This document shows, piece by piece, positions 2,754 through 40,152 of a stretch of 64,000 nucleotides of DNA. Numbering within the stretch: position 1 is the first letter of the stretch; each line of letters starts with the position of its first letter. The notes below the pieces were generated by a model. That model was not told the origin of the DNA and did no database searches. It saw only the letters and a program-made list of their open reading frames with translations. The stretch comes from an uncultured Lentisphaeria bacterium. Lineage in GTDB: Bacteria; Verrucomicrobiota; Lentisphaeria; Victivallales; UBA1829. The translations under genes were made by a program, and so were the position numbers. The stretch covers positions 16,710 to 80,709 of the forward strand of contig CASDPB010000053.1 of NCBI GenBank assembly GCA_949282305.1, given 5' to 3'.

Positions 2754-3734
2754 ATGTCTGTAGCAATGAAAGCAAGGGTGTCGAACTCTTCATCCGTGCT
2801 TGCTCAGGTGGCGAAGAAGGCGTGTGTTTCCTCCGGAACCGTGAGCCGGGTGTTCAACAACAGCGAACTGATTCCGGACGGTACCCGGAGCCGTGTGCTT
2901 TCCGCCGCCCGTGAACTGGGATTCCGTCCGCGCGTGGGCGTGAGAACCCCGCAGATCGCGCTGATTACCGAACCCCCGCAGAAAACCGTGATGGGCGGAT
3001 ATGTCAATACCATGACGCAGTATATCTGCCATGCCCTTTCCCGTTCCGATGCGACTGTCAGGATGATTACGGAGGACCGGATCGACAATTTGGTCAACTG
3101 CTGGTTCGACGGCATCATCGGCGTTGCGTGGGAGGAGCATACAATCGACATTCTGAAGGGGATGAAGAACATTCCCGTAATCTGGCTGAGCGACCTTTAC
3201 AAAGATTATTTTCACTGCATTTACATCGACGGAAGGGAAACGGGAAACCTTGCGGGGGATTACCTTGTCAATAAGGGACACCGCAGGATTGCCGTGATCC
3301 ATGACGTCGATTACGCCGGATACCTGCGTGCGGACGGAGTCGGGGAGGCGATGCGCAGAAAGGGAATCGACCCCGCGCAGAACCTGATGAAGATTCCGAA
3401 TTCCATGCCGCTGCATCTTGCCGTCAAACAGCTGATTGACGCGGAATGCACGGCCGTGTGGGTCACCGGTGAAGATATGAAGGTGCTGGAAGTGAACTGG
3501 CTGATCCAGGAACTGGCGGGGAAACGGGTGCCCGAGGACATTTCCCTGATGGGATTTGAAAACCCCGGAATTTCCGAATTCCTCTGTCCGTCGCTTACCA
3601 CGATTGCGTCGCCTCTGCACGAGATCGCGGAGAAGGCGGTGGAACTGGTTCTCAGCGATGATCTCGGGGAGCTCCGGCAGGTCAAGATGCAGGTTCGCCT
3701 GATAGAACGTAATTCCATTACAACCATATCATAA
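2754..3734 (+). CDS. LacI family transcriptional regulator
   Basis: 326 aa. N-terminal LacI-type HTH (VLAQVAKKACVSSGTVSRVFNNSELIPDGTRSRVLSAARELGFRP). C-terminal periplasmic-binding-protein-like sugar-binding fold (VPEDISLMGFEN). Confidence 0.9.
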   Translation: MSVAMKARVSNSSSVLAQVAKKACVSSGTVSRVFNNSELIPDGTRSRVLSAARELGFRPRVGVRTPQIALITEPPQKTVMGGYVNTMTQYICHALSRSDATVRMITEDRIDNLVNCWFDGIIGVAWEEHTIDILKGMKNIPVIWLSDLYKDYFHCIYIDGRETGNLAGDYLVNKGHRRIAVIHDVDYAGYLRADGVGEAMRRKGIDPAQNLMKIPNSMPLHLAVKQLIDAECTAVWVTGEDMKVLEVNWLIQELAGKRVPEDISLMGFENPGISEFLCPSLTTIASPLHEIAEKAVELVLSDDLGELRQVKMQVRLIERNSITTIS

Positions 3735-3747
3735 AAGGAAGGAAAAC

Positions 3748-5862
3748 ATGAAGTTCACACAACTCACATCCGTTTTGTCGGCAATGTCCGTTCTGTTTGC
3801 GCTTTCAGGCATGGGACTTGGAGCGCAGGAGCAGGCACAGGGCGATGCCGGGAAGAGTGTGGCGCTGGAGTATGCCAAGGAGCAGTACCAGCCGCGCTAC
3901 AAAGCGAAGGTCACATGGGAAGGGAAAGACCTGATCCTCAGAACCGACACAGCAGAGTGGGATTCCGGGGTCAAGATCAATCCTCCGAAGGGGCAGTTCC
4001 TGGATCTTTCCAAGGGAAAAGTGCTTGCCGCCGATGTGGAGAATCTTTCCAAGACGAATCAGATGCGTCTGACCATGCACATTTCCAGCGGCAGCCGCAA
4101 GGACAAGAATTTCCGGGAAGCCTACACTGGTATCGGATTGAACCCCGGTGAGAAGCGCACCATGCGCATGTATCTGCCGCACAAGGCGATTTTTGAAGTC
4201 GGCAAGGATGCGCGCAACCTGAAGAATCCGCTCGACACGGACAAGATCAATGCCATTGAATTCAAGATGATCTGGCCTTATGAAGCGGGCAAGAAGGATC
4301 TGGCATACTGCCGTATTTCCAATCTCCGTCTGGAAGGCGAGCCGGAATATTCCAAGAAGATTCCGGCGGACAAGTATCTGCCCTTCATCGACACCTACGG
4401 GCAGTACAAGCATGGCGAGTGGGCGGAAAAGATTCATTCCGACGAGGATCTCAAGAAGAATCACGAAAAGGAACTTGCCGAACTGGAAAAGGTTTCCGCT
4501 CCGGAGGAGTGGGATCGTTTCGGCGGCTGGAAGAACGGCCCCAAGCTGAAGGCGACCGGATATTTCAGAGTCTCGAAATTCCAGGGCAAATGGTGGTTCG
4601 TCGATCCGGAAGGACGCCTCTTCTGGTCTGCGGGAATTGACGTGCTCCGCACTCACACCGACGCCACGCAGGGGAAAAAGCATCCGCAGTGGTTCTCGCA
4701 GCCCGTTCCCGCGGATGGAACGCTGCCGTTCACGCACTGGAACCTCCAGAAGAAATACGGCAAGGAAGATTATGTGGAGGATTTCTACAAGGTGCTCAAC
4801 AAGCGCATGACGGCGTGGGGCATCAACACCATCGGAAACTGGGGCGACAGAAGGCACATGCTCATGGGCGAGAAACCCTATGTCCTGTCTCTCTGCGACA
4901 ATGACCGCGACCTTCCGAAGTTCAAGGAAGTCGAAGTGAAAAACGGCGAGACCAAAATCAAGAACAGCCGTGTCAAGTTTTACGATGTGTTCGATCCGCA
5001 GTTTGAAGACCTGATGGGCAATATGCTTGCGAACCGCGCCGCGACCGATCCGATCGTGAAGAAGTCCATCACCGATCCGATGTGCATCGGCTATTTCGTT
5101 GACAACGAACTCCAGTTCGGCAATATCATGAAGGCTGTCATGAAGGCGCCCGCGGAACAGCCCGCGAAGGTGGAGTTCATCAAGGACCTGAAAGCCAAAT
5201 ACAAGGATTCCGTGGAGGAATTGAACAAGGCGTGGAATACGAAGTTCTCCACATGGGAGGACGTCGCAAACAATACTGTGACTCCCAAGGGCAAGGGATA
5301 CCGCACGGACGAGCGCGCGTTCTTCAAGAAGTTCGTGAACGAATACTTCCGGATCTGCCGCCAGGGAATCAAGAGCGTCGCTCCGCACAGACTCTATCTC
5401 GGATGCCGCTTTGTCGGATTCCGCAATGCGGGTGCTGTCTGGGAGGCTTCCACGAAACATTGTGACGTTTCCAGTGTCAATTCCTATGCGAACAGCATTG
5501 CGAACACGAATCGCGGCGACTTCCGTGACCGTCCGGTGATTATCGGGGAGTTCCACTTCGGAACCTATGACCGCGGCATGTTCTCCAACAGCCTGATGCC
5601 GCAGTACTCGCAGGAAGACCGCGCCGTCTCCTACAAGAGATACATGCAGGGAGCGCTGGTGCATCCGAACTATGTCGGAGCTCATTACTTCCAGCTCCGC
5701 GACCAGCCGCTGACCGGTCGCTATGACGGTGAAGGCTATCAGATCGGATTCGTCGACGTGGCGGACACTCCGTATCCGGAGATGACGAAAGCCGCGAGAG
5801 AAGTCGGCGAAAACATGTATCAGTACCGTGTAAACGGCAAACTTCAGAATGAGATGAAGTAA
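3748..5862 (+). CDS. Secreted glycoside-hydrolase-like protein (N-terminal beta-sandwich plus clan GH-A-like TIM barrel; family not assignable by eye, possibly GH50/GH42-like)
   Basis: 704 aa. RBS AAGGAAGGA before ATG 3748. Signal peptide MKFTQLTSVLSAMSVLFALSGMGLGAQE. TIM-barrel-type motifs GINTIGNWGD, FVDNELQFG (candidate acid/base NE) and VIIGEFHFG (candidate nucleophile E). Confidence 0.6.
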   Translation: MKFTQLTSVLSAMSVLFALSGMGLGAQEQAQGDAGKSVALEYAKEQYQPRYKAKVTWEGKDLILRTDTAEWDSGVKINPPKGQFLDLSKGKVLAADVENLSKTNQMRLTMHISSGSRKDKNFREAYTGIGLNPGEKRTMRMYLPHKAIFEVGKDARNLKNPLDTDKINAIEFKMIWPYEAGKKDLAYCRISNLRLEGEPEYSKKIPADKYLPFIDTYGQYKHGEWAEKIHSDEDLKKNHEKELAELEKVSAPEEWDRFGGWKNGPKLKATGYFRVSKFQGKWWFVDPEGRLFWSAGIDVLRTHTDATQGKKHPQWFSQPVPADGTLPFTHWNLQKKYGKEDYVEDFYKVLNKRMTAWGINTIGNWGDRRHMLMGEKPYVLSLCDNDRDLPKFKEVEVKNGETKIKNSRVKFYDVFDPQFEDLMGNMLANRAATDPIVKKSITDPMCIGYFVDNELQFGNIMKAVMKAPAEQPAKVEFIKDLKAKYKDSVEELNKAWNTKFSTWEDVANNTVTPKGKGYRTDERAFFKKFVNEYFRICRQGIKSVAPHRLYLGCRFVGFRNAGAVWEASTKHCDVSSVNSYANSIANTNRGDFRDRPVIIGEFHFGTYDRGMFSNSLMPQYSQEDRAVSYKRYMQGALVHPNYVGAHYFQLRDQPLTGRYDGEGYQIGFVDVADTPYPEMTKAAREVGENMYQYRVNGKLQNEMK

Positions 5863-5956
5863 AACTGCTCCGGGCAGCTCCGGGATTTCCCGGAGCGGTC
5901 CGGAATAACAGAAAGTGCTGTCGCGGCAGAAAACAAAGATATTCGGGAGAGAAAAA

Positions 5957-6853
5957 ATGAAGACATTCAGGCAGATTCTCAAGGAACGTTTTTCCCGGAA
6001 CCGGGCAAGTAGCACACAAAGAGAGGAAAAAAGCGGAATGCTGGAAATGAGGCGGGACAGAGGGGAGTTCACCCTGATAGAGCTCCTCGTGGTAGTTGCT
6101 ATTATAGCAATTTTGGCGGCAATGCTGCTCCCCGCGCTGAGCAAGGCGAGAGACAAGGCAAGAGATATTTCCTGTTTGAACAATCAGAAGCAGATGGGAG
6201 TGTTGATGGCAATGTACGCGGGAGAGAATCAGGACAAACTGCCGGCTTACACGGATAATATTGAAAGCGGCAGAGGCAAATGGCAGGATATGATTTTTGC
6301 TCTGTATGATCCTAAGACATATTACTCCGTCAGCAATCCGCGGGATCGCGATTTCATCCATTATGATGATCGCCGGGGCAGCAGTGCCACACTGCGGCCT
6401 TATGGTATTTTTGCATGTCCTTCCCAGCCTCTGCGGGCGGGCAAAGATACTTCGGAAGCCGGAGGCACGAAACATTATCTGGCAAACAAGTATATTTCCA
6501 ACAACACCCCGTCGGGTACTTGGAGTACCAGCAATCCGAATGATGAGCGCAACAAATACGCCACTCGTCTTCTGACGCGGATTAAAAACCCTTCGTCTGT
6601 GATGCATGTCTGCGACGGAGACCGCGGAACGGAGAAATATGAAGTGGCGATTCACATGAAGAAGTTCATCGGCGGCAATACCGGTGCTTCTGATGCGTAT
6701 GCCAACATCAATTTCGGCGGACCTTACAGACATTCGAGCAAACGCGGTTTGAACACTCTTATGGCTGACGGTCATGCCAAGCCGACGCTGGCAAAGGATA
6801 TTCCCACCGGCTATGACAAGCCGGGCGGAAAATTCTGGTGCGGCAATAACTGA
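5957..6853 (+). CDS. Prepilin-type N-terminal domain protein (DUF1559 / H-X9-DG-like pseudopilin paralog), copy 1
   Basis: Contains [47 protein letters not shown] and the C-terminal motif [20 protein letters not shown]. The start is uncertain. Candidates are ATG 5957 (RBS GGGAGAG), ATG 6038 or 6047 (short leader typical of prepilins), and GTG 5915 (ORF track). Confidence 0.85.
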
Positions 6854-6991
6854 GTTTTCGAGTTTTCGACAGTGCTGTTTCAGAGGCGGCGGATGGGGAC
6901 GCAAACGCCGCCTCTGGAACTGGACAAAAATATAGAGGGAAATGGGAAAGTTGCAAGAGGAATAATAAAAAACGGGATTCGGAGGATGAAT

Positions 6992-7792
6992 ATGAGAGTG
7001 CATTCACAGGAAGTTTTTTGGGGAATTCGGATGAGTCATGTTGAAGATTCGAGGAGAAACAGAGGGAATTTTACCTTGATAGAGCTCCTCGTCGTGATTG
7101 CGATCGTCGCCATTCTTGCGGCGATGCTGTTGCCCGCTTTGAACAAGGCGAGAGACAAGGCGAAAGACATCAGCTGTATGGCGAACATGCGTCAGCTCGG
7201 GCTTCTGATGAACTTTTACACGGACAACAACAACGGGCAGTTCCCGAAAGCGAACGGGCTTTTAAACAGCGGTCCCGGAAGCTGGAGCGGAAGCGGACGC
7301 TGGCAGGATGGACTGTATGCCATGAAGACCAATAAGACGCTCGCAAACAGACTGCACTGGCAGGCGCAGGACAACACCACGCTGACCCGTCCTTATGACG
7401 TCTTTGCCTGTCCCGCTTCGAGAGATATGCCCTGGAACAGCGATGGCGTCTATGGTTTCATGGGGCATTACCTGATTAATTCCTACATCGGCAACTATGG
7501 AATGGACGCATGGGCGAAGGAATATGCCGCATTCAATGTCAAATCCGTGAGACAGCCCTCCAGGACAATGGAGCTTATTGACGGAGCATCGGAGAGGCGG
7601 ACTGACGGCACTTCCCCGTGCTGCGACACCAAATCCCAGCTTACCATAAATGGCGGAAAATATCGCCACCAGGCAAATACAGGGGTGAACGTTCTCTTTA
7701 TCGACGGACATGCGGAAGCCATGACTCACAACAAGATTCCGACCAATGTCTTGGTAAGCGACGGAACACCTTTCTGGGGCAACAGGAAGTAA
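6992..7792 (+). CDS. Prepilin-type N-terminal domain protein (DUF1559 / H-X9-DG-like pseudopilin paralog), copy 2
   Basis: Contains [47 protein letters not shown] and the C-terminal motif [20 protein letters not shown]. Start candidates are ATG 6992 (GGAGG 6 nt upstream), ATG 7031 and GTG 6872. Confidence 0.85.
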
Positions 7793-7941: not shown

Positions 7942-10230
7942 ATGAGTTTTGCTAACTGGTGCGTCATGCTGATTCCTCTGATCGGGATCCTCGGTCTTGC
8001 CGTATATTCCCGGAAATACGTGCGCGGCGTGGCGGATTATCTGGCGGCGGGACGTGTCGCCGGGCGTTATGTGATCTCCGTAGGGGATTTGTCCACAATG
8101 CTGGGTGTAATTACCGTGATTGCCATGGTGGAGCAGCAGTACCAGTGCGGTTTTGCGCTGAACTTCTGGAACCACATCATCATGCCGATTTCCATCGTCA
8201 CTTCACTGACCGGCTACTGTCTTTACCGTTTCCGCGAAACGAAGGCGATGTCGATGGGGCAGTTCCTTGAAATGCGTTACAACCGCGCGTTTCGTATCTT
8301 TGCGGCGTCCCTCCGGACGATTGCCGAGATGCTGACGAACGCAATCGGGCCTGCCGTCGCCGCGCGCTTCTTCATTTATTTTCTGGGACTGCCTCACGCT
8401 GTCACAATCTTCGGCGTGTCGATTCCCTCCTTTATTCTGATTCTGATTCTCTGTCTGATTCTCGCCATGGTCGTGATCTGGCCCGCCGGACGGGTTTCCC
8501 TGATCGTGACCGACTGTTTCCAGGGGCTTATCAGCTATCCGATTTTCGTGATTTTCGTCTTCTTCATTCTCGGTGAATTTTCTTGGTCCGCCCAGATTGC
8601 GCCCGTCATGTCGAACCGCGTTCCGGGGGAAAGTTTCCTGGATCCCTATGACATCAAGGATCTCCGGGACTTCAATCTGTTCGCACTGGTGGTGACTGTG
8701 ACCAATAACATACTGAACCGCGCAAGCTGGATCGGCAACGATACCAGCGGCTGCGGAAAAAGCCCGCATGAGCAGAAAATGGCAGGCATCATCGGGTCGT
8801 GGCGGAACGGTTTCGGCTTCCTGATGTGCATGATTATTGCAATCGGCATGATTACGCTGATGGGGCATAAGGACTTTGCCGCGCAGGCGAAGTCGATCCG
8901 CAATGAGCTTTCCGCCAAAGTCGCCGCCGAGACAGTGGAGGATTCCGCGGTGCGCCGGCAGGTGGTCGCGGCGCTTGAGTCGCAGCCGGAGATCGTCTTC
9001 CCCGAAGGCGAGAAGTTTTCCCGTGTGCACAATCCCGACACGGAGTATCTGAGCACTGCGGCGGATATTATCACCCGGCAGGAAAACGGCAATGCGGTTT
9101 ATCAGGGATTCCGCACTCTCTATTATCAGATGATGATGCCGGTCGTCCTCCGCAACATCCTGCCGAGTTTCATGATCGGTCTGATTGCCCTGCTGATGAT
9201 TATGCTGATGCTCTCCACGGATGATTCGCGTATTTTCAACGCATCGTCCACGATCGTGCAGGACATCATCATGCCGTTGAAGAAGGAGCCTCTGACTCCA
9301 AAACAGCATTTATGGTATCTGCGATTCCTGTCGCTGGGGGTTGCGGTGTTCTTCCTCTGCGGTTCGATCTTCCTTGCGCAGATGGACTACATCAACATGT
9401 TTCTCACGATTATGACAAGCATCTGGTGCGGCGGCGCGGGACCGGTGATGATCGGCGGTCTTTACAGCCGTTTCGGCACGACGGCGGGCGCGTTCGCCTC
9501 GCTGATCGGCGGCGCCGTGATTTCCGTCGGCGGCATCGCCATGCAGCAGAACTGGGCGGAGCGCATCTATCCGTGGCTGGCGCGTCTCGGTTACTGTGAT
9601 TCGATTGACTATATGCTTCAGACGATTTCCGCGCCGTTCTCCCCGTATATCGTATGGAAAATGGATCCGCTCAAGTTCCCGATCAATTCCATGGAGATTT
9701 TCTTCATTGCGATGGTGACGGGAATCCTCTGCTATGTGATCGTGTCGCTGATCACTTTCAAGAAGCCCTACAATCTGGATCAGATGCTTCACCGCGGCAT
9801 TTACAGCATCGACGGCGAAAAACGCATCAAGTCTCCCTGGACCTGGCGGAATGTGTTCAGCAAGCTGATCAACATCACGCCCGAATACACCCGCGGAGAC
9901 AAGATCATCGCATGGTCGGTGTTCTTCTACAGCTTCGTCTACCAGCTGCTGATCATGTTTGTGATCGTGGTGATATGGAACGCCATTTCCCCGTGGCCGA
10001 AGGAGTGGTGGAGCACTTACTTCTATTTCGGAAGTATCGTCGTCGCCTGCATTGTCGGTATTATTTCGACCGTGTGGATGCTGATCGGCGGATGTATTGA
10101 CCTGCGCCGTCTCTTCGTCGATCTTGCCGCGCGGATTGACAATCCTCTGGACGACGGGCGTGTCGAAGGGAATATCTCCCTGATGGACCGTCAGAAGATC
10201 GAAGCGATCAAGGAAAAATCAGAACATTGA
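7942..10230 (+). CDS. Sodium:solute symporter (SSS) family transporter, unusually long (762 aa)
   Basis: Polytopic membrane protein. The N-terminus (LAVYSRKYVRGVADYLAAGRVAGRYV) resembles the SSS-family signature around the conserved LAGR. Many hydrophobic segments run throughout. It is followed by a strong terminator. Confidence 0.7.
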   Translation: MSFANWCVMLIPLIGILGLAVYSRKYVRGVADYLAAGRVAGRYVISVGDLSTMLGVITVIAMVEQQYQCGFALNFWNHIIMPISIVTSLTGYCLYRFRETKAMSMGQFLEMRYNRAFRIFAASLRTIAEMLTNAIGPAVAARFFIYFLGLPHAVTIFGVSIPSFILILILCLILAMVVIWPAGRVSLIVTDCFQGLISYPIFVIFVFFILGEFSWSAQIAPVMSNRVPGESFLDPYDIKDLRDFNLFALVVTVTNNILNRASWIGNDTSGCGKSPHEQKMAGIIGSWRNGFGFLMCMIIAIGMITLMGHKDFAAQAKSIRNELSAKVAAETVEDSAVRRQVVAALESQPEIVFPEGEKFSRVHNPDTEYLSTAADIITRQENGNAVYQGFRTLYYQMMMPVVLRNILPSFMIGLIALLMIMLMLSTDDSRIFNASSTIVQDIIMPLKKEPLTPKQHLWYLRFLSLGVAVFFLCGSIFLAQMDYINMFLTIMTSIWCGGAGPVMIGGLYSRFGTTAGAFASLIGGAVISVGGIAMQQNWAERIYPWLARLGYCDSIDYMLQTISAPFSPYIVWKMDPLKFPINSMEIFFIAMVTGILCYVIVSLITFKKPYNLDQMLHRGIYSIDGEKRIKSPWTWRNVFSKLINITPEYTRGDKIIAWSVFFYSFVYQLLIMFVIVVIWNAISPWPKEWWSTYFYFGSIVVACIVGIISTVWMLIGGCIDLRRLFVDLAARIDNPLDDGRVEGNISLMDRQKIEAIKEKSEH

Positions 10231-10494: not shown

Positions 10495-10537
10495 AAAAAA
10501 CGCCGGGCACATGCTGGAATGAATTGCAATGTCCGGC
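10495..10537 (-). terminator. Probable rho-independent terminator for 10571..11674
   Basis: On the minus strand, GCCGGACAT...ATGTGCCCGGCG forms an imperfect stem followed by TTTTTTG. It lies about 35 nt downstream of the stop at 10571. Confidence 0.4.
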
Positions 10538-10570
10538 TCTCCCGGCGGAATTGTATTGGAGAAACCGCTG

Positions 10571-11674
10571 TCAGCGTTTCCCGTTCAGATTCAGAAGTTT
10601 TCTGTAGTAGGCGAGGCGATCTGCGGCGGCCTGTTCCAGATGAGTTCCCTTCCTGAGTGCCAGCGCTTTCTCCTGAAGCGCGACCGCTTTTGCCGGATTG
10701 CCCGTTTCCGCGCTGATTCTGGCAAGGGTTTCGTGGGCGACCGCCGCCACCTGCGTGTTCTGGTTTTTCACTTTGTCGTATGCCTTTTCCGCATAAGCGA
10801 GCATGACTGCGGGATCCATGATCCCGTAGGGAGCGTTTTCCAGCGTGTATGCGGTGAGAAAGACCAGACTGCTGTCTTTTTCCGCGGCGAAATCATGGAA
10901 TGCCTTTTCCGTCGCCTGCTTGTAGGTCTGCATGTTGCCCTGGTTCAGCAGGAAGTCCAGCTGCATCATGCGGAGTCTGGAATCCTGCGGATTTTTTGCG
11001 CAGATTTCCTGAATGAACTTGACCGCCTCCCCGGGCTGTCCTTTGTTGTTGAAGGCGAAAAGTTTTGCCTGAATCGCGATTTTGTCGTCCGGAGCGATTT
11101 TGAGTATTTTGTCGGCGGAGTTGGAGATGACGTCGGGCAATCCGGCCTGGATCGCCATCTGGAGTTCCAGCCGGATTGCTTCGATCTGTTTCTGCCGGGA
11201 TTCGGAGAACTTGCCGTTCATGACTTTCTCTGTCACGGACTCAAGTTCCGTCGGGTGCCCGGACCAGACGACCACACCGTTCTGCGCAAGGACGGCATAG
11301 GGGAAAAGCGACTCCGTTTCAGCGAAACGGACGCGGCTTTTCAGATTGTCGTCCGCCGCCAGAGGAATTTGGAACGGGCCGTTGTCATGCACAACGGCAT
11401 CCGTGGTTTTCACCGGATTGATGGCGACAGCGGCGAGCGTCAGCCGCGGGTGTGTCACTCCGATGGTTTCCAGCATCCGCAGGGTATTGACTGCATCTTC
11501 GGAGGTGATGTCCAGCAGGACGACCGCCGTAAGCCCCTGTGCGGGAAGCACCGTTGGCTGGGTATACCATTTTGCGGCTTCAATTGCCGGCATGGGCTTG
11601 CCGGCGTCGATTGCGCCCAGAGAAAATGTGCAGAGCGCTGCTGTGGAGAGCAGTCCGAAGATGATGCGTTTCAT
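10571..11674 (-). CDS. Secreted hypothetical protein: thioredoxin-fold-like N-domain without CxxC, plus TPR-like helical repeats
   Basis: 367 aa. RBS GGAGGA before ATG 11674. Signal peptide MKRIIFGLLSTAALCTFSLGA. The C-terminal two thirds are alpha-helical repeats (TPR-like by eye). The fold assignment is weak. Confidence 0.5.
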   Translation of the reverse strand: MKRIIFGLLSTAALCTFSLGAIDAGKPMPAIEAAKWYTQPTVLPAQGLTAVVLLDITSEDAVNTLRMLETIGVTHPRLTLAAVAINPVKTTDAVVHDNGPFQIPLAADDNLKSRVRFAETESLFPYAVLAQNGVVVWSGHPTELESVTEKVMNGKFSESRQKQIEAIRLELQMAIQAGLPDVISNSADKILKIAPDDKIAIQAKLFAFNNKGQPGEAVKFIQEICAKNPQDSRLRMMQLDFLLNQGNMQTYKQATEKAFHDFAAEKDSSLVFLTAYTLENAPYGIMDPAVMLAYAEKAYDKVKNQNTQVAAVAHETLARISAETGNPAKAVALQEKALALRKGTHLEQAAADRLAYYRKLLNLNGKR

Positions 11675-11689
11675 GAAATCCTCCGTAAA

Positions 11690-12691
11690 TCAGGGTGTGA
11701 TCTGTACCCAGTTTTTGTTTCCGGCGGCGCGGTACATGGCTTCCATGACAACGCTGCGCTGTGCCGCTTCCCTGGCGGAAACAAGTTTGACTTTTTCACC
11801 GGCGAGAGCGTCAAGGAACAGGACAAATGCATGCGGCCAGGCATCCGGCAGAACCGACCAGGGCTCTTTTCCGTCGGCGCCGGTGACATGGTTGCTTTTG
11901 AAGAAAAGCTGTTCGTTGACGACGACGGCATGGCCTTCGGTTCCGCTGATCTCGCAGGTGACGGGATTTGCCAGATCGACCCAGCCACCGGCGAGAGTGC
12001 CGACCGCTCCGCATGGAAAGTGCAGGAGCCCTTCGCCGGATTCATCGCAGTCCGCGCCATAGCGTCCCGTCACCGTATGAATATCCGCCGTGACCCGTTC
12101 CGGCATTCCCATGAACCACAGCATGATGTCGAGGGAGTGTGTTCCCAGATCACCGAACGCGCCGCATCCGGCAATCGCGGGATCTGCCATCCAGCGCCAC
12201 TGAGTATCGAACCAGCCGCCGAGAGAACCGCAATGACAGTTGGAATGGCGGATTCTCGTAATTTTCCCGAACGCGCCCGCCTCGATCTGCTGTTTCAGGA
12301 ACAGATGCACCGGATTGCCGCGCATGAAATATCCTGTCTGAAAAAGAACGCCCGCCTTTTCGATGGCGTCCGCCATCTCGACGGCATCCTTTGCGGCAAA
12401 GCCGAGCGGCTTTTCGACGAACATGTGCTTTCCCGCTTCCGCGGCTCGAAGCACAAGCTCCCGGTGCCGATTGGTTTCCACGCAGATGACGACCGCGTCA
12501 ATCGCGGGGTCATTCCAGATTTCAGTGTCGGAATCATATCCTTTTGTGTTCAGGATTTCCGCGTTTTCCCGGGCGCGCAGGGAATCGTGATCCCATACGC
12601 CGGCGATTTGAATGTCTTTTCTTTCTTTCAGCGTTTTCACGAAATTCGGCGTATGGATGTGTGCACATCCGGCAAGTGCGATCCGTTTCAT
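11690..12691 (-). CDS. Gfo/Idh/MocA family oxidoreductase
   Basis: 333 aa. N-terminal Rossmann segment MKRIALAGCAHIHTPNFVKTLKERKDIQIAGVWDHD and the EKP motif (HMFVEKPLG) typical of the family. Confidence 0.85.
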   Translation of the reverse strand: MKRIALAGCAHIHTPNFVKTLKERKDIQIAGVWDHDSLRARENAEILNTKGYDSDTEIWNDPAIDAVVICVETNRHRELVLRAAEAGKHMFVEKPLGFAAKDAVEMADAIEKAGVLFQTGYFMRGNPVHLFLKQQIEAGAFGKITRIRHSNCHCGSLGGWFDTQWRWMADPAIAGCGAFGDLGTHSLDIMLWFMGMPERVTADIHTVTGRYGADCDESGEGLLHFPCGAVGTLAGGWVDLANPVTCEISGTEGHAVVVNEQLFFKSNHVTGADGKEPWSVLPDAWPHAFVLFLDALAGEKVKLVSAREAAQRSVVMEAMYRAAGNKNWVQITP

Positions 12692-12711
12692 TCTGCTGTT
12701 TCCTTTTGCTT

Positions 12712-14178
12712 TCAGTTTATCCCTCGTTCCAGTTCAAATGCGCGAGCCGTGCGGAACATGCGGTCTTCCGCAAGATCCGGCGCGATCAACTGAATGCCGA
12801 CGGGCATTTTCGTATTTTCATCCATTCCCGCGGGAACACTGATTCCGCAGGTTCCGGCAAGATTCAGAGCGGTTGTGAAGACGTCTGAAAGATACATCTG
12901 CATCGGATCGGATTTTTCCCCGAACCTGAATGCCGTTGCCGGCGTGACAGGCGTGAAGATCACGTCACATTGTTTGAACGCTTCCGTAAAATCACGGCGG
13001 ATCAGAGTGCGGACTTTCTGCGCCCGCACATAATAGGCGTCGTAGTAACCGCTGCTGAGCACATACGTGCCGAGCATGATTCTGCGCACGACCTCCGGGC
13101 CGAAGCCTTCGCCGCGGGAGTCCAGATACGTGGAGAGCAGATCCGTTGCGTTCGGACTGCGGTATCCGTAACGGATGCCGTCGAAACGCGCCAGATTCGC
13201 ACTGGCTTCGGCGGGGGCGATGATATAGTAGCACGCCATGGCATACTTTGTATGCGGCAGCGAGATATCTACAAATTCGGCACCGAGTTTTTCCAGCTTT
13301 GCCCTGGCGTCTGCACAGACTTTTTTCACTCCGTCGGAAATGCCTTCGACATTGAAATACTCTTTCGGGATGCCGATGCGCAATCCCTTCAGAGTCGGCG
13401 CTTTTTCAAACTCTTCGAGATCCTTTGCGAATCCGCCTTCCGGCACCGGGGCGGGAAGACTGGTCGTGTCTTTCGGGTCGGCGCCGCAGATTACATCCAG
13501 CATTGCCGCCGCATCGTAGACGCTCTTGCTCATGGGACCGATCTGATCCAGGGAAGAGGCAAAGGCGACAAGTCCGAAACGGGATACGCGCCCGTAGGTC
13601 GGTTTGACTCCGACAATGCCGCAGAACGCCGCGGGCTGGCGGATGGAGCCGCCCGTGTCGGAGCCGAGAGCAATCACGGTCTCCCCAGCTGCCACCGCGG
13701 CGGCGGAACCGCCGCTCGAACCTCCGGGAACACAGTCCGTGTTGAGAGGATTTCTGGTTTTCTGATAGGCGCTGTTTTCGCAGGAGGAGCCCATTGCGAA
13801 CTCGTCCATGTTGGCACGGCCCATTAGAACGAATCCGGCGGCTTTCAGCTTTCCGGTGACGGTCGCGTCATACGGAGAGACAAAATCCCTGAGAATTTTT
13901 GAGGCGCAGGTGCAGGGATACCCTTTCGCCGCGATGTTGTCCTTGATCGTAACCGGAATGCCGTCGTAAGGCCCGAGCGCCTTTCCGGAGGCGCGGCGTT
14001 CATCCGAGGCTTTCGCCTGTTCGAGCACCGATTCCCTGTCAAGAGAGAGAAGCGCCTGAACAGAGGGTTCCACTTCCGCGATGCGTTCAAGATACGCCCG
14101 GCAGAGCTCCACGGATGTGACAGCTCCGTCCCGCAGAAGTTCGGCGGCCTGCCGGAGTGTGAGATTTCTGACTTCCAT
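12712..14178 (-). CDS. gatA: Asp-tRNA(Asn)/Glu-tRNA(Gln) amidotransferase subunit A
   Basis: 488 aa. Amidase signature GGSSGGSAAAVAAG. GatA-like N-terminus (LTLRQAAELLRDGAVTSVEL). Its start overlaps the gatC stop by 1 nt (TAATG at 14176-14180). Confidence 0.95.
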   Translation of the reverse strand: MEVRNLTLRQAAELLRDGAVTSVELCRAYLERIAEVEPSVQALLSLDRESVLEQAKASDERRASGKALGPYDGIPVTIKDNIAAKGYPCTCASKILRDFVSPYDATVTGKLKAAGFVLMGRANMDEFAMGSSCENSAYQKTRNPLNTDCVPGGSSGGSAAAVAAGETVIALGSDTGGSIRQPAAFCGIVGVKPTYGRVSRFGLVAFASSLDQIGPMSKSVYDAAAMLDVICGADPKDTTSLPAPVPEGGFAKDLEEFEKAPTLKGLRIGIPKEYFNVEGISDGVKKVCADARAKLEKLGAEFVDISLPHTKYAMACYYIIAPAEASANLARFDGIRYGYRSPNATDLLSTYLDSRGEGFGPEVVRRIMLGTYVLSSGYYDAYYVRAQKVRTLIRRDFTEAFKQCDVIFTPVTPATAFRFGEKSDPMQMYLSDVFTTALNLAGTCGISVPAGMDENTKMPVGIQLIAPDLAEDRMFRTARAFELERGIN

Positions 14179-17609: not shown

Positions 17610-19097
17610 ATGCCGGAAGTTTATGAAACTGTAAAAATACATGACAAATATCAGTTCGAGTTGAAATTCACCTATCCGCTGGACCGCAGACGCGATACGA
17701 ATGAATATCAGGTCGACACCTATGTGTTTCTCCCGAACAATCTCTACATCAATAAAAGAACCTACTCTGCGGATGATTTCTACGGTGATCTCCATAAATA
17801 TATCCGTCTGCGGACTCCGGTGGTTCATCTTGCCTCCATGTCCGCTTCGCCGGATTCCCCGATGAGCAAGCTGGAGGACGCCATGCGGCGCCTTGCGGAG
17901 ACGCCGGACGATCCGTCTGTGATTCAGACATACGAGGATCGCCTGAAAATGTTCTGCTCCATCATGAAAAGCGCCCTGCGCGACGAGGAGGGAAATCTGG
18001 AACGGGGACTTGCCTCGGCTTCCGCCCCGGCCGCTGTCAGAAATTATCTGAAACAGGCGGACCGGCTTCTTGAGGATTTCCGGGAGCTGATGCATATTGT
18101 GCGCTTTCCCGATATTGACAGGAAACGATTGAATCTTTTCAGGCTGGTGGATGAGTTTCTCAGCATCACGGTGAATAAGTACCGTTACCGTTTGTATCTG
18201 GCGCTGGAACGCTGCCCGGAGCGTTATGAGTGGCTGGAGGCTTTGCGGGGGGAGATTGCCGCGGCTCTCCGCCATGAGGTCGATTACCGGTGCGGATGCG
18301 GTTATCCGACCGTGCCCTCGAAAAACAGCGACAACGAGGAGCTGGTCTATCGTGAAAACATTCTGAAAAAAGTGATGGCGAGCGTTCTGTTCCTCAGAAG
18401 CGATACGCGGCGCGACGGAGTGTTCATGACGAATCTGGTGTTCGGAATTGCCGCCGGAATCGCGATGACGTTTGCCACCATTGTCACATTTTTGTCGCAG
18501 AACCTGATTTTCCAGGAGTTTTCACTGACATTCTGCATCATTGTGATTGTCGCCTACATGGGCAAGGACAGGATCAAGGAACTGGGGCGCTCCTATCTTT
18601 ATTCCAAACTCAAATCCCATATCTACGATTATAAGACGAGGATCCGGAGCACGCTGGGAAAAGAGGTGGGAATCTGCCGTGAGAGTTTTGCGTTCATCAA
18701 TGAATCCAGACTTCCCCCCGATATTGCCCGGCTCAGAAACAAGGATTATATTTCCGAACTGGAAAACGGCATTGTCGGGGAAGACATCATCCATTCCAAA
18801 GAGGTGCTGACGCTCCATTCCCGGAACTGCAAGGAGATTTATTCCGATTTCAATGTGGACGGGCTGGTGGACATTGTGCGTTTCAACGTGCGGCATTTCC
18901 TGGCGAAGATGGATAATCCCGTCAAGGAAATCTTCATGCCGGACGAAGTTGCTGGCGTGGTGAAGGTGCAGGCGAAGCGGACTTACAAGATTCATCTGAT
19001 TATTCAATGCCGGATGAACGGCGGCAGAGAGTCCTATGCCAGTTTCCGCCTGACGCTCGCACGCAACGGCATCAAGCGCATTGAGCGCCTGGCGTGA
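17610..19097 (+). CDS. Hypothetical membrane protein, no recognisable family
   Basis: 495-aa ORF with coding-like composition. Two hydrophobic segments lie mid-protein (about aa 271-296 VFMTNLVFGIAAGIAMTFATIVTFL and aa 303-317 FSLTFCIIVIVAYMG), flanked by large soluble domains. Confidence 0.6.
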   Translation: MPEVYETVKIHDKYQFELKFTYPLDRRRDTNEYQVDTYVFLPNNLYINKRTYSADDFYGDLHKYIRLRTPVVHLASMSASPDSPMSKLEDAMRRLAETPDDPSVIQTYEDRLKMFCSIMKSALRDEEGNLERGLASASAPAAVRNYLKQADRLLEDFRELMHIVRFPDIDRKRLNLFRLVDEFLSITVNKYRYRLYLALERCPERYEWLEALRGEIAAALRHEVDYRCGCGYPTVPSKNSDNEELVYRENILKKVMASVLFLRSDTRRDGVFMTNLVFGIAAGIAMTFATIVTFLSQNLIFQEFSLTFCIIVIVAYMGKDRIKELGRSYLYSKLKSHIYDYKTRIRSTLGKEVGICRESFAFINESRLPPDIARLRNKDYISELENGIVGEDIIHSKEVLTLHSRNCKEIYSDFNVDGLVDIVRFNVRHFLAKMDNPVKEIFMPDEVAGVVKVQAKRTYKIHLIIQCRMNGGRESYASFRLTLARNGIKRIERLA

Positions 19098-25406: not shown

Positions 25407-26642
25407 TTATAAAATCGACGGCGTGCGCATTTTCCTGTTGTCCAGGTGCTTCCGGACATTTTCCACGCCGGGGAATTTACTGAACAGGAAGCAGCCGCCG
25501 GTTTTCCTGATCCGTTCCTGAAGTTCCTCCCTGCCTTTGACGCAGGAGCGGTCAACTCCGATCAGAAGTCCGATTTCCGGATGTTTCTCCAGATAGTCCA
25601 GACGCTCCGTGATCTGTCCCGCGTGCCATTGATGAAACAGCTCCAGATCGAGCTCCTCTCCCGTTGCCGTGTTGCGGAAACTGAAATCGGGAAAGATCAG
25701 GCGGTTTTCCTCCGTTCTGATATAGGGGGCGCGGTCAATGATCTGCCAGGTTGTTTCCATCCGGTTGAAGCAGGTCTGGAACATTTTGATCTCTTCGGGA
25801 ATGTAGGCGCCGAAGTTTGCGTAATGGCACTTCAAACCGGAAGTCTCGTCCAGTTTGAGCTTGAGATTGCGCTCCTTTACTTTGATCGCGCTGGATATCT
25901 TCCACTTCTTCAACCGGCAGAGCGCAGGGAAAAACGATGCCAGCTGAAGTCCGTATTTCAGGCTGTTTTCCAGAATGGACGCCGGACCGTCTATCCTGAG
26001 CCGGATGAGCGGCGGCCCCTTTTTATTTTTTTTGTCCGTGACCGTTTCGGCAATGCAGAGGAGACGGAAGAATTTCAGGTATTTGAACAGGCGCCTCAAC
26101 TCTGCCGGATCCTCCTCGGCGATTTCCGCCTCCAGCTCGGAACTGAACAGCAGCAGGGACTGCACCAGGGAGGTGTTGTAGCGTTCCAGAAGTTCCGAGG
26201 GAAAAATCTTCTTGACGCCGGTCAGCTGTTCGTTTTCCGGCAGGTCGGCATAGATGCCGCGGCTGAGGACTTCCTCCCCCTCCATGACTTTGTCGTGATA
26301 GACGGAAATCTCTTCGGGCAGTTCCGAATTTTTGAACAGTTCGGCGGAACGTGCGAAAAGAGCCTGCCGCAGAGCCGGATAATCATAATCGCCGCATGAG
26401 GAATATTCGCAGCGGTCTTCCAGTATCTTCTGAAGCCCGCGCGCCAGTTTCAGGTCGCGTTTCGCATTGACAAGCTGCGCCGCGGCGGATTCTACGTCCA
26501 CACGTTTTGAGCCGCAGCCGTCGGTATAGACCGCGATCAGCTGCGAGGCGAAATTCAGGAGCGAAGGGTCGCGCGTTTCGATGAAAGAAGGTTTGGCATT
26601 GCCCCCCGCAATTCTGTAACGCAGTAAATCTTTGGTCAACAT
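25407..26642 (-). CDS. DUF790 family protein (Bax1-like nuclease partner of XPB)
   Basis: 411 aa. The N-terminus MLTKDLLRYRIAGGNAKPSFI, the length and the position immediately downstream of an XPB-type helicase (72-nt gap) match my recollection of DUF790/Bax1. The family call has not been verified by search. Confidence 0.65.
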   Translation of the reverse strand: MLTKDLLRYRIAGGNAKPSFIETRDPSLLNFASQLIAVYTDGCGSKRVDVESAAAQLVNAKRDLKLARGLQKILEDRCEYSSCGDYDYPALRQALFARSAELFKNSELPEEISVYHDKVMEGEEVLSRGIYADLPENEQLTGVKKIFPSELLERYNTSLVQSLLLFSSELEAEIAEEDPAELRRLFKYLKFFRLLCIAETVTDKKNKKGPPLIRLRIDGPASILENSLKYGLQLASFFPALCRLKKWKISSAIKVKERNLKLKLDETSGLKCHYANFGAYIPEEIKMFQTCFNRMETTWQIIDRAPYIRTEENRLIFPDFSFRNTATGEELDLELFHQWHAGQITERLDYLEKHPEIGLLIGVDRSCVKGREELQERIRKTGGCFLFSKFPGVENVRKHLDNRKMRTPSIL

Positions 26643-26714
26643 GGTTTTGTGCTCCTGAACGGCGAAAAGGAGGCAAAGAACGGATGCGGCATGAATTTTC
26701 TCATTGTTTCCCTT

Positions 26715-28133: not shown

Positions 28134-28137
28134 TGCG

Positions 28138-36224: not shown

Positions 36225-38270
36225 TTAATCCTTGCTAAGAATATCTGAGCAGATGTTTTTGCCACGGAAAATATAACTTCCCGTATTACTGTTGACCGTT
36301 TTCCCGGTCAGGGAATGGAAACCCGGCGGCAAGGTGATTTCTGCTTCCGCTATGCCGGGACCGATACCGCAGATCAATACCCGCTGTGCTCCGTGCCCGT
36401 CATCAAATCGTGCGGCGTAAACCTCCCCGGAAATCGTTTTTACCGGTAACTGTTCAGGTGGAATATCAGACAGTATGAATGGTTCCAGTTTACGTAGATT
36501 TCGGGCGATGCGACAAACTTGCGGCCAGCGTTTTTTGAATTGATTCGGATCTGGACCTTGGAGCAGATCAAAGTAGGAATACATGATGAAGCCTTTGGAA
36601 CCGAAAATTGCTTCCAGCAAACACATAGACATGATTTCTTCTTCTGTTGGATAGCGAAATTCGGTCAGATAGACTTTCAGGTTGTTGACTGCTGTCGGAC
36701 GGTAATTGCCGACATTGAAGATTTGCGGGACGGTCCAGAGCGGCATTCCGTTATGAGAATTGCACAATACACGCCGGGCACTTTTCATAAAACGCAATAC
36801 TTCTGACATATTTTGGATATCAGCGCGAGCAATTGGGTAGGGGTCAATTCCGAGAATATCGTAACCGGAAGCATAATATTGCAGATTTTCTTCCTGGAAG
36901 AGTACAGAAAGAGTCGGATGTCCGGGGTCCAGACGATTGACCAGACGGCGCCGTTCCAGCAGGGCTTTAATCCGATTCGTATGAAGTTCATCACATATAT
37001 ACCAAGCCAATAGTGCCGGATGACTTTTCCAGCGTTCAACGATTGCCTGTATGATTCGGTCTGCCCCCTCGTATCCTTGCCATTTCAGCCATTTGGAATC
37101 GTAGGGTTCAAAAGGGTAGACCTGAGTAAATGAGAAGATCAGTTTCAGCCTGTTTTCCGCCAAGCAATCCATTACGGCATCAATCGCTTCCAGACCGTTT
37201 TTACCGGGATACTTCAGTTCCATGCTGTTGTAGGATAGTACACAGTTGAAACCGCCATTGGCAATCATTTTTATCTCTGTCGGACTCATCTGCCCCGTAT
37301 AAAGTCCTATAGGCATGAACGGTTTCCCGTTTACGATAGTACGTCCGAGCTCATCTATTGAAACTCTATTCGCCTGTTTTCCTGCAATAATTTGCAGAGG
37401 AATATTTTTTTCAGCCAGAATATAACAGTTTGCTGTATCAAGCAGCTTCATATGCAATTCCATTGTTCCTTTCGGCAACTTGCCGGGATGAATTAAAATC
37501 CGATTGTTATTTATTGGTGAAATCGTATGGAATAATGAATTGCCGTCTTTTCGGATATCCACCCATGCCTGATATATGGGGGATCGCCGCTGTTTATAAT
37601 CGAATATTCCCACGACGAAAGAAGATAGTTCAAGTGTTGCAGTATTGTCACAGTCAATTATTTCCTGTATCGGCATGATTAATCCGGTATACCAGTTACC
37701 CCCGTTTTCTTCATATAGAAAGGCATCATCAAATATTGCGGTTCCGGTCGTTCCGGGTCGTAGATAAAGTGCAATGGAATAATAATAGTCCGGATTCGCA
37801 ACAAAAGTTTGTTCCAGTTTGGTCCAGTCGGAGTTCCCCCGCAGGTTCTTCAGATAATAGCCACTCACATATTTTCCTGTTTTACGATCGCTCCATTCAA
37901 GACAGACACTTGCGCCTTCTCCTTGGACTGTATGTGTTTTTACCCACATGCCGAAGCGGTATTTGACGCCGGGCTTCAAATTGCGAAGTGGAATTCCCGG
38001 TAGAATATATGAGTCCGGAGCAGTTCGCCGATAGAGCAGAGCATTGGTGTAACTTCTGCCGATTCCTTTTTCAACGCTGATCCCGTGTTTACCGATGTTT
38101 TGCCAACCATGTTCTCCTTTTTCAAAATCTCCGTTTGGAAACAGATTGATTCGTTCTTTCAACTGACTGGAAGATAATCTCTTATAATTCTCCAATGTAA
38201 TTTCTTCCGCAGTCGTGTTCAGGATGGATAACAGAGTAGCCAGAATTATCATGTAAGTGGAAGTTTGCAT
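36225..38270 (-). CDS. Secreted CBM4/9-like plus TIM-barrel glycoside-hydrolase-like protein (family unknown)
   Basis: 681 aa with low G+C. Hydrophobic N-terminal signal [25 protein letters not shown]-like module (NGDFEKGEHGWQNIG...AIFDDAFLYEE). A TIM-barrel-like region (GFNCVLSYNS, LAWYICDELH, ILGIDPYPI). Its start overlaps the upstream stop by 1 nt (TAATG). Confidence 0.55.
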   Translation of the reverse strand: MQTSTYMIILATLLSILNTTAEEITLENYKRLSSSQLKERINLFPNGDFEKGEHGWQNIGKHGISVEKGIGRSYTNALLYRRTAPDSYILPGIPLRNLKPGVKYRFGMWVKTHTVQGEGASVCLEWSDRKTGKYVSGYYLKNLRGNSDWTKLEQTFVANPDYYYSIALYLRPGTTGTAIFDDAFLYEENGGNWYTGLIMPIQEIIDCDNTATLELSSFVVGIFDYKQRRSPIYQAWVDIRKDGNSLFHTISPINNNRILIHPGKLPKGTMELHMKLLDTANCYILAEKNIPLQIIAGKQANRVSIDELGRTIVNGKPFMPIGLYTGQMSPTEIKMIANGGFNCVLSYNSMELKYPGKNGLEAIDAVMDCLAENRLKLIFSFTQVYPFEPYDSKWLKWQGYEGADRIIQAIVERWKSHPALLAWYICDELHTNRIKALLERRRLVNRLDPGHPTLSVLFQEENLQYYASGYDILGIDPYPIARADIQNMSEVLRFMKSARRVLCNSHNGMPLWTVPQIFNVGNYRPTAVNNLKVYLTEFRYPTEEEIMSMCLLEAIFGSKGFIMYSYFDLLQGPDPNQFKKRWPQVCRIARNLRKLEPFILSDIPPEQLPVKTISGEVYAARFDDGHGAQRVLICGIGPGIAEAEITLPPGFHSLTGKTVNSNTGSYIFRGKNICSDILSKD

Positions 38271-39063: not shown

Positions 39064-40152
39064 TCAAATTTCGTCACAAGTCTGCGGCGCTTCCTTCAGT
39101 TCCGCTACGGATTCACCTTCCCTGATAGTCAGGCCGATATAATCAATCGAATTCATTTCCGGATCGTTCCTGCGGCGTTCAAAAAGATTCCATGCCAGCT
39201 CCATGATCTTTGCCGTGGAGTTCACGACTGAAGTCGGCTTCGGGTGCAGATCATCCCGTTCCAGACCGTCCGAGGAGATGAGGGATATGTCCCTGCCGAT
39301 TGTCAGCCGCCGCTGTTTCATATACTCATAGACATTCTTCAGGAACCAGTCGCTTACCACCAGAGCCGTCGGTTTCGGGGAAGAGGCAAACATGGCGTCC
39401 AGACGCTCGCAGAGCTGTTCCCGTTTCTGGGAGTAGTGTATGACCCACTCCGGACGGACCGTTAAACCGTTTTCGCTCATGAAGCGGTAGAAGGCTTCAC
39501 GGCGCAGCAGGTCTGTGAGGCTGGCAAAGCCCAGATCCACCGTATGGATGAACCCGATCCTGCGGTGTCCGTGCCGGAACAGATACTGCAGCTGCATTTC
39601 GACCAGCTCCGGCGCATCAATGACTGCCGGTCCCGTATTCGGATAATACCGCGGCAGCACTACCGCATAGTTGATTCCGTGATGATCGAAAATTTTCTGT
39701 ATGTCATTGTGATGGGGCATCATCAGCAGGGCGTTCCTGATATTGTATTTGGTTATGATCTCCTCATATTCTGATATCGGCGCATACCAGCTGATCCGGT
39801 GAAAGCGCGGAGTGAGCTGATGCCGGGCGGCACCGGCAAGAAAATGGTTGATGAGCTCCATCGCAAAATTGTCCGTCTCGACGTAGCTGATTTCGGAACA
39901 GGCGACCAGGTCGATGATATGAAGGCTTTCTTCATGAATCCTTTCCGTCAGGTAAATGCCGGAGCGGGCACGGGTTTCCAGAACTTTGTCGTGCTTCAGC
40001 TTGCGGATGGCGTTTTCCAGCACATTGCGTCCCAGCTGAGATTCCTGCTGCATCCGGCGGAGCGGCGGCAATGCTTCTCCGGCGTTTAAATTCACCAGAC
40101 ATTGCCGTATATACTCTTCCGCCTGTCGATTCTTTATGTCTCTGATGCTCAT
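39064..40152 (-). CDS. Transcriptional regulator: GntR-type winged HTH fused to a LacI/PBP1-type sugar-binding domain
   Basis: 362 aa. The N-terminus (LPPLRRMQQESQLGRNVLENAIRKLKHDKVLETRARSGIYLTE) is GntR-like. The C-terminal part resembles the LacI effector domain (ALVVSDWF..., IGRDISLISSDG). Confidence 0.7.
   Translation of the reverse strand: MSIRDIKNRQAEEYIRQCLVNLNAGEALPPLRRMQQESQLGRNVLENAIRKLKHDKVLETRARSGIYLTERIHEESLHIIDLVACSEISYVETDNFAMELINHFLAGAARHQLTPRFHRISWYAPISEYEEIITKYNIRNALLMMPHHNDIQKIFDHHGINYAVVLPRYYPNTGPAVIDAPELVEMQLQYLFRHGHRRIGFIHTVDLGFASLTDLLRREAFYRFMSENGLTVRPEWVIHYSQKREQLCERLDAMFASSPKPTALVVSDWFLKNVYEYMKQRRLTIGRDISLISSDGLERDDLHPKPTSVVNSTAKIMELAWNLFERRRNDPEMNSIDYIGLTIREGESVAELKEAPQTCDEI

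Follow-up and report, generated by a model that had tools for sequence, protein, structure and literature searches.

In a 64-kb window of a Lentisphaeria/Victivallales metagenome-assembled genome (contig CASDPB010000053.1, positions 16,710 to 80,709), we analyzed four genes, P1 to P4, whose products begin like type IV pilins and lack glycine at the position immediately before the predicted prepilin peptidase cleavage site (position -1). The loss of Gly or Ala at -1 is not peculiar to these four paralogs: it is a trait of the whole pilin-like family in the Lentisphaerota. Our favored reading, to which we give a probability of roughly 0.5, is that the proteins are still cut between the -1 residue and Phe +1 (the X/F junction) by a peptidase for which the identity of the -1 residue has ceased to matter. 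P1-P4 belong to DUF1559/H-X9-DG, a family of type IV pilin-like (pseudopilin-like) proteins that has expanded greatly in the Planctomycetota-Verrucomicrobiota-Chlamydiota (PVC) group. Their ancestry lies among the type IV pilin-like pseudopilins, and they probably work in the same way.

A six-frame scan of the window recovered exactly four pilin-like N-termini. The sequence FTLIELL is preceded by RRDRGE in P1 (Phe +1 at 6068, forward strand), by RRNRGN in P2 (Phe +1 at 7070, forward strand), by MGKRKN in P3 (Phe +1 codon starting at 38995, reverse strand) and by RGKTGF in P4 (Phe +1 codon starting at 61314, reverse strand). The -1 residue is Glu in P1, Asn in P2 and P3 and Phe in P4; Gly stands at -2 in P1, P2 and P4, and there is no Gly near the P3 site. 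A preliminary description of this DNA had read the residues before FTLIELL as RGE, RGN, RKN and TGF, with Gly at -1 in none of the four copies and Gly at -2 in three of them, P3 having none. The scan returned the same residues in every case, and the lack of Gly at -1 was also borne out by hidden Markov model matches that begin at the Phe. From this residue onward, the mature start FTLIELLVV(I/V)AI(I/V)AILA is common to P1-P4.

We then compared the four N-termini with the features of a class III signal peptide. Phe +1, Glu +5 and a run of about 20 hydrophobic residues were present in all four, as was a hydrophilic, positively charged leader with Lys or Arg within -2 to -5. The remaining feature, Gly (rarely Ala) at -1, was absent from P1-P4. 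Both Pfam N_methyl (PF07963) and NCBIfam TIGR02532 (IV_pilin_GFxxxE) matched the four proteins; the TIGR02532 cut-off was passed by all four and the N_methyl cut-off of 21.2 by three, P4 scoring 20.5. Every one of these matches begins at the Phe (profile positions 7-27 of 27 for N_methyl and 4-24 of 24 for TIGR02532), so that the Gly column of both profiles is left unmatched. A PROSITE PS00409-style pattern failed on all four proteins. Because the -1 Gly, a defining class III feature, is missing, we did not file P1-P4 as canonical prepilins.

Homologs of the four proteins were collected from protein databases, at first with a P3 query that included the leader and later with leaderless queries. 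Asn occupied -1 in 82 of the 120 matches of the first search, a result that we judged to be biased because the query contained 'KN'; once the leader was removed from the query, Asn at -1 amounted to about 13%. With mature P1 against a 90%-clustered database (n = 118), the -1 residues were D15 N15 G15 K12 S10 A10 L7 R6 C5 H5 P4 Y4 F3 I3 T2 V1 Q1. With mature P2 against 1.84 billion 50%-cluster representatives (n = 137), they were K20 N18 R17 L15 I10 S9 F9 G7 A7 H6 Y4 P3 D3 V3 C3 Q2 E1. Gly thus accounted for 5-13% of the -1 residues in the leaderless searches. The mature P2 search also gave the size of the family, with 217,631 representatives at E <= 1e-3 and 43,319 at E <= 1e-10. All the named matches in the protein searches belonged to the Lentisphaerota and had a residue other than Gly at -1, including those of Victivallis vadensis and Victivallis sp. 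Marseille-Q1083.

In the pooled set (n = 244), position -1 held 0.43 bits and was the least constrained position of the leader, while Phe +1 and Glu +5 were found in 244 of 244 proteins and each position from +1 to +24 held about 4 bits. Lys or Arg was present among the last four leader residues in 220 of the 244 proteins. At -2, family-wide, Lys or Arg made up about 45% and Gly about 3-6%. The leaders were mostly 4-8 amino acids long (MKKx), and some had just 2-3. The preliminary description had named a wider alignment with Gly at -1 as the rule among the results that would overturn it; these values show the opposite.

To place the change taxonomically, one genome per GTDB species was scanned with patterns drawn from the mature side only (FTLIELL[VI]V and IAIIAILA[ASG]), which gave 80 organism-named loci, and every pilin-like N-terminus in these loci and their flanks was taken. 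The -1 residues were G24 A19 K1 F1 in the Verrucomicrobiota (n = 45), G11 A4 in the Planctomycetota (n = 15) and R7 S7 P5 T4 K4 G2 I2 D2 C2 N2 Q1 Y1 L1 E1 in the Lentisphaerota (Victivallales, Lentisphaerales and Oligosphaeraceae; n = 41). Gly or Ala was therefore found at -1 in 43/45 verrucomicrobial, 15/15 planctomycetotal and 2/41 lentisphaerotal N-termini, that is, in 58/60 for the first two phyla taken together against 2/41 for the third (Fisher p = 4e-23). Since the three phyla share one mature segment, the difference between them is confined to the region upstream of the Phe. The window itself comes from the Lentisphaerota side of this split, its closest species representative being UBA11452 (87% identity to P2). 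In a JGI metagenome sample made up mostly of environmental contigs, the -1 residues were G45 and A37 plus 14 others. As a separate observation, Ala was nearly as common as Gly at -1 among the Verrucomicrobiota paralogs (loci L005-L081; 19 against 24), and the 'invariably Gly' rule is thus already loosened to Gly/Ala in that phylum.

Several of these observations argue for continued cleavage at the X/F junction. Conservation drops off exactly from +1 to -1, and such a cliff at the canonical site is what is expected if everything upstream of the Phe is discarded. The retention of Phe1 and of a membrane-buried Glu5 in hundreds of diverged paralogs, along with the excess of synonymous over non-synonymous differences among the window paralogs, points to selection for pilin-type assembly and not for a generic anchor. 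The simultaneous loss of the -1 residue in all paralogs of one phylum, with the same mature segment, suggests one change in a shared enzyme instead of many changes in its substrates. The basic residue near the end of the leader resembles that of class III signal peptides and was also counted for cleavage, as was the report that laminarin induces type II secretion proteins and secretins in cultured Lentisphaerae (PMC11361711 supplement). Maturation at X/F would then be carried out by a prepilin-peptidase-type enzyme whose recognition would have shifted from the -1 residue to the invariant mature side together with the basic residues from -2 to -4. After cleavage, the proteins would begin at Phe1, and a type II secretion or type IV pilus-like machine could still handle them, their probable role being that of substrate-specific subunits for glycan binding or handling. 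Gene conversion was considered as a source of the identical N-termini and rejected because synonymous differences far exceed non-synonymous ones, the first 26 mature codons of the window paralogs showing 7-18 synonymous and 2-4 non-synonymous codon differences.

Other observations weigh against cleavage at X/F. Mutagenesis has found the Gly 'absolutely critical' in all bacterial systems studied (review PMC4471445). The -1 residues of the family include Pro, Asp/Glu and bulky aromatics, and a protease accepting them all would need unusual permissiveness. Certain leaders have merely 2-3 residues, and the first 14 residues of the 37-residue P1 leader are conserved, which is odd for a peptide that is discarded. 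A Pfam search of the window found no A24 peptidase, and a GxGDxK-type motif scan of about 1.7 Mb (the window and related loci) found no peptidase either, a weak negative since the genomes measure 4-8 Mb.

Several of these facts speak for a second reading, in which the proteins are not cleaved at all. The pilin-like N-terminus would then be a signal-anchor, with the N-terminus in the cytoplasm and the C-terminus outside, and the proteins would be glycan-binding modules of the periplasm tethered to the inner membrane, in the manner of the archaeal bindosome, and some orthogroups would keep a functional cytoplasmic tail. An essentially unconstrained -1 position at which Pro, acidic and aromatic residues occur, leaders down to 2-3 residues, the conserved N-terminus of the P1 leader and the lack of an A24 peptidase in any sequence scanned (Pfam in the window, motifs in about 1.7 Mb) all agree with it, as do operon partners that are sugar regulators, glycosidases and a transporter. 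However, a generic anchor would need neither Phe1 nor a buried Glu5, both conserved at 100% within 24 near-invariant positions, a sharp boundary between -1 and +1 is unexpected without cleavage, and the lack of a peptidase in about 1.7 Mb of flanking DNA carries little weight when the genomes measure 4-8 Mb. We regard the uncleaved state, the main rival, as rather unlikely, while giving it real weight.

The P1 leader has 37 residues (5957-6067), begins with MKTFRQIL at 5957 and ends in RGE. Its first 14 residues, MKT[FL][RK]QI.AGRF[SF]R (5957-5998), are kept in 17 orthologs of 59-86% identity. In the alignment of these orthologs (A1), their conservation was at or above the protein average, and that of the 20 residues before the Phe was below it. 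The annotation on the NCBI-sourced contig starts P1 at 5957 (298 amino acids) and the ENA caller at 6038 (271 amino acids), a shorter start that requires an internal Met which several orthologs do not have. With such conservation, either the cytoplasmic extension may have a function or the translation-initiation region may be under constraint. The P2 leader has 26 residues from 6992 and ends in RGN, with GGAGG 6 nt upstream; its start is conserved as MRVHSQ(E/D)VF in P0289 and L011, and gene callers give the protein 266 or 268 residues. P3 has a leader of normal length, the six residues MGKRKN, with GGAGG 8 nt before the ATG, and a protein identical to it (P0001) is present in public assemblies. 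In P4, the nearest ATG, GTG or TTG upstream of Phe +1 lies 27 codons away, and the leader has at least 27 residues if this internal Met is used. Gene callers chose a start that gives a leader of 41 residues, preceded by a AGGAAAGGAA site, and the protein is called with 291 residues in three assemblies; the 86%-identical ortholog P0382 does not preserve this extension. The unusually long leaders put forward in the preliminary description were therefore largely upheld, by conserved starts in P1 (37 residues) and P2 (26 residues) and by the lack of a nearer start in P4 (at least 27 residues). The GTG starts at 5915 and 6872 that came from a mechanical list of open reading frames were unsupported and set aside.

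The disagreement of gene callers on the P1 start (271 or 298 residues) is the kind of evidence that would make the missing Gly an artefact of start choice or of alignment, or the mark of decaying pseudogenes. We excluded this explanation, for which we see hardly any chance: the residue before the Phe is unaffected by the choice of start, P3 has a textbook ribosome-binding site and start, the reading frames are intact and kept in many assemblies, purifying selection acts on them, and the pattern recurs in hundreds of independent proteins.

Comparison of close orthologs bears on two further explanations. In the P1 orthogroup, position -2 is E/G/A/R/W and position -1 is D/N/E/V. Among the P2 orthologs, P0241 reads CRRN before the Phe and another reads DRGI, and the P4 ortholog P0382 (86% identical) reads KMRI. 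The preliminary description, which noted Gly at -2 in three of the four window paralogs, had offered cleavage after this Gly, which would put Glu at +6. This proposal was refuted, as even close orthologs differ at -2, P3 lacks a Gly there and the would-be +1 residue is unconserved; the chance that it is correct appears negligible. The two other fates that it offered, processing by a peptidase of shifted specificity and no cleavage at all, correspond to the two readings weighed above. The other explanation is a mixed fate, in which an ordinary PilD would cut only the paralogs with a small -1 residue (G, A, S, N or C), or the action of another enzyme, an unrelated protease or aminopeptidase that would trim the leader. 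The small or polar residues N, S, G, A and C do represent about 40% of the -1 residues of the family, and -1 switches between small and bulky residues among close orthologs. A -1 residue that decides the fate of the protein should nevertheless be conserved within each orthogroup; instead it is D/N/E/V in P1, N/I in P2 and F/I in P4, and the alternative enzyme comes without supporting evidence. We hold this explanation to be improbable.

The assignment of P1-P4 to the DUF1559 family rests on their layout and on the globular domain. Each protein consists of a short or long basic cytoplasmic leader, the invariant pilin helix and a periplasmic globular domain, with PF07596 (SBP_bac_10) after the N-terminal helix and a C-terminal R-H...D-G-H motif as the marks of DUF1559 membership. 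Against the PF07596 cut-off of 23.3 bits, P1 (32.5) and P2 (25.4) scored above and P4 (17.9) below; P3 had no match to PF07596, which is carried by P3 homologs. In alignments A2 and A3, of the P2 globular domain with its relatives, a Cys pair, W, D, N, D and R-H...D-G-H were invariant, and these columns may form a metal- or ligand-binding site. The AlphaFold model (mean predicted local distance difference test, pLDDT, of 88.8 for the whole protein and 81.2 for the globular domain) shows a helix over residues 16-66 (about 50 residues) and a small sheet. A Foldseek search of the globular domain gave no significant PDB match. The sequence profile matched solved pilins over the N-terminal region only, namely Thermus PilA 6xxd (E = 2e-17), a Geobacter pilin and GspG 5wda; these solved pilins begin at F1, which was counted for cleavage at X/F. 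Two candidates were rejected. A true major pseudopilin of type II secretion, GspG (TIGR01710), was set aside as the best score was 35.8 bits against a cut-off of 88.85 and covered the N-terminal part only, and Pfam found no gsp or pil machinery genes near P1-P4 in the window. A scan of about 1.7 Mb for Walker-A GspE and secretin motifs gave a sole ATPase pair, in locus L146, whose pilin-like gene has Gly at -1. Cleavage by signal peptidase I after the hydrophobic stretch was set aside as the conserved LLPAL before N places Leu at -1 and Pro at -3, and the model is one continuous helix.

As presented in Table 1, each of the four genes sits within a sugar operon of the regulator-glycosidase(-transporter) type, in a window that is otherwise ordinary chromosome (gyrA, bamA, dnaB, ssb, pth, prs and a type III glutamine synthetase).

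Table 1. Pilin-like genes of the window, their operon neighbors and an intergenic RNA element.
Feature	Position	Strand	Basis and location
P1, DUF1559-type pilin-like protein, 298 aa	5957..6853	+	Pfam N_methyl and SBP_bac_10/DUF1559
P2, DUF1559-type pilin-like protein, 266 aa	6992..7792	+	N_methyl, TIGR02532 and DUF1559 matches
P3, pilin-like protein, 247 aa	38270..39013	-	N_methyl match
P4, pilin-like protein, 291 aa	60562..61437	-	N_methyl match; gene calls
LacI-family regulator	2754-3734	+	Pfam; upstream of P1
GH42-like glycosidase	3748-5862	+	Pfam; directly upstream of P1
Strong 15-bp RNA hairpin	5869..5904	+	Between GH42-like stop (5862) and P1 start (5957)
Sodium:solute-symporter-like (SSF-like) membrane protein	7942..10230	+	Pfam SSF; directly downstream of P2
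681-aa protein with carbohydrate-binding module CBM_4_9	36225..38270	-	Pfam; directly downstream of P3
GntR helix-turn-helix (HTH) regulator with periplasmic-binding-protein-like sugar-sensing domain	39064..40152	-	Pfam; directly upstream of P3
Alpha-L-rhamnosidase	54574-56616	-	Pfam; downstream of P4, after the CBM_4_9/DUF6259 gene
1275-aa CBM_4_9/DUF6259 protein	56711-60538	-	Pfam; directly downstream of P4

The first operon runs in the order LacI regulator, GH42-like glycosidase, P1, P2 and SSF-like transporter, and Victivallis vadensis has the same regulator-pilin-like order, with a LacI regulator followed by two pilin-like genes beside GH42 genes. In the second, the stop codon of P3 overlaps the start codon of the downstream CBM_4_9 gene at 38270 (reverse strand), suggesting translational coupling. 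The third has the order 837-aa protein, P4, CBM_4_9/DUF6259 protein and rhamnosidase. This context suggests that each paralog may be an accessory subunit of a glycan-degrading system, specific to one substrate. Just left of the window, a fifth pilin-like paralog (locus L001, 5046-5630) reads MQRRY followed by FTLIELLMVVGVIAILAG, with Tyr at -1; it follows an alpha-amylase, adjoins an IclR regulator and is itself followed by a 229-aa Arg/Glu-rich protein with one hydrophobic segment.

The stretch that includes the hairpin between the GH42-like gene and P1 (5860-5960, 101 nt) folds at -37.6 kcal/mol (z = -3.7 compared with shuffles). Since no U-run follows it, the hairpin is not a standard terminator; within the operon it may serve in processing, stability or attenuation. 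Elsewhere in the window, two large open reading frames, 10529-12793 (forward strand, 754 aa) and 17610-19097 (forward strand, 495 aa), were without a Pfam match at E <= 0.001. Where the first of them lies, the ENA calls for L001 place three genes on the opposite strand (a 367-aa protein without family, a GFO_IDH_MocA oxidoreductase and part of an amidase), so the 754-aa frame may not be a real gene. A DUF790 protein adjoins an XPB/ERCC3-type helicase (25407-28367, reverse strand), which together we take to be a Bax1-XPB-like nuclease-helicase pair; it is unrelated to the pilin-like genes.

Taken together, these results lead us to a tentative proposal, which we hold at slightly short of even odds: the Lentisphaerota would have abandoned the supposedly universal Gly(-1) for at least tens of thousands of pilin-like proteins, either through a prepilin peptidase, or an enzyme in its place, that reads only the mature side and cuts after any residue, or through an uncleaved bacterial counterpart of the bindosome, with each paralog coupled to one glycan-degrading operon. 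Either a prepilin peptidase of new specificity would exist or pilin-type N-termini would work uncleaved, and both would change the view of pilin maturation; a phylum-wide exception at -1 would surprise pilus specialists. Pattern-based pilin finders (PROSITE PS00409 and PilFind-type rules) require the -1 Gly. Such tools miss a family that forms a sizeable share of Lentisphaerota genes, with four copies in 64 kb and a fifth just outside. The tight link to glycosidase operons suggests pilin-based polysaccharide handling in gut and marine PVC bacteria without SusC/D-type uptake. Cultured strains exist (Victivallis vadensis, Victivallis sp. Marseille-Q1083 and Lentisphaera araneosa), which makes the question directly testable. 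Few papers mention DUF1559, and those examined do not discuss the -1 residue or a Lentisphaerota prepilin peptidase; Lentisphaerae are missing from the large survey of type IV filament systems.

Compared with the bacterial class III signal peptides of PilA and GspG/PulG, the window proteins share the basic hydrophilic leader, Phe +1, Glu +5 and about 21-24 hydrophobic residues in a long N-terminal helix, but they have neither Gly nor Ala at -1, with leaders that are very short (2-6 aa) in some cases and unusually long (26-57 aa) in the others. With the DUF1559/H-X9-DG proteins of the Planctomycetota and Verrucomicrobiota they have in common the invariant N-terminus, the globular domain with its R-H...D-G-H motif and Cys pair, and the large paralog expansions; it is the Gly/Ala at -1 that those phyla keep and the Lentisphaerota members do not.

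The archaeal class III signal peptides processed by PibD/FlaK are similar in their looser -1 rule and in their reliance on a basic residue just upstream (PMC4471445). However, archaea still have mostly Gly, Ala or Ser at -1, a narrower choice than any residue, and often lack Glu5, which is invariant in the window family. In the bindosome of Sulfolobus solfataricus, sugar-binding proteins carry class III signal peptides (PMC4471445), and these pilin-type signals on sugar-uptake proteins offer a possible parallel to the sugar-operon context of P1-P4, and the closest analogy in function. There is no evidence for a common descent of the archaeal bindosome and DUF1559 globular domains, and sugar binding by DUF1559 proteins would be an analogy only. 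Finally, the type IVb pilins (TcpA, BfpA and Flp) have leaders of 15-30 aa, comparable with those of P1, P2 and P4. Type IVb leaders still end in Gly, whereas the long leaders of P1, P2 and P4 do not and are orthogroup-specific, one of them with a conserved N-terminal motif.

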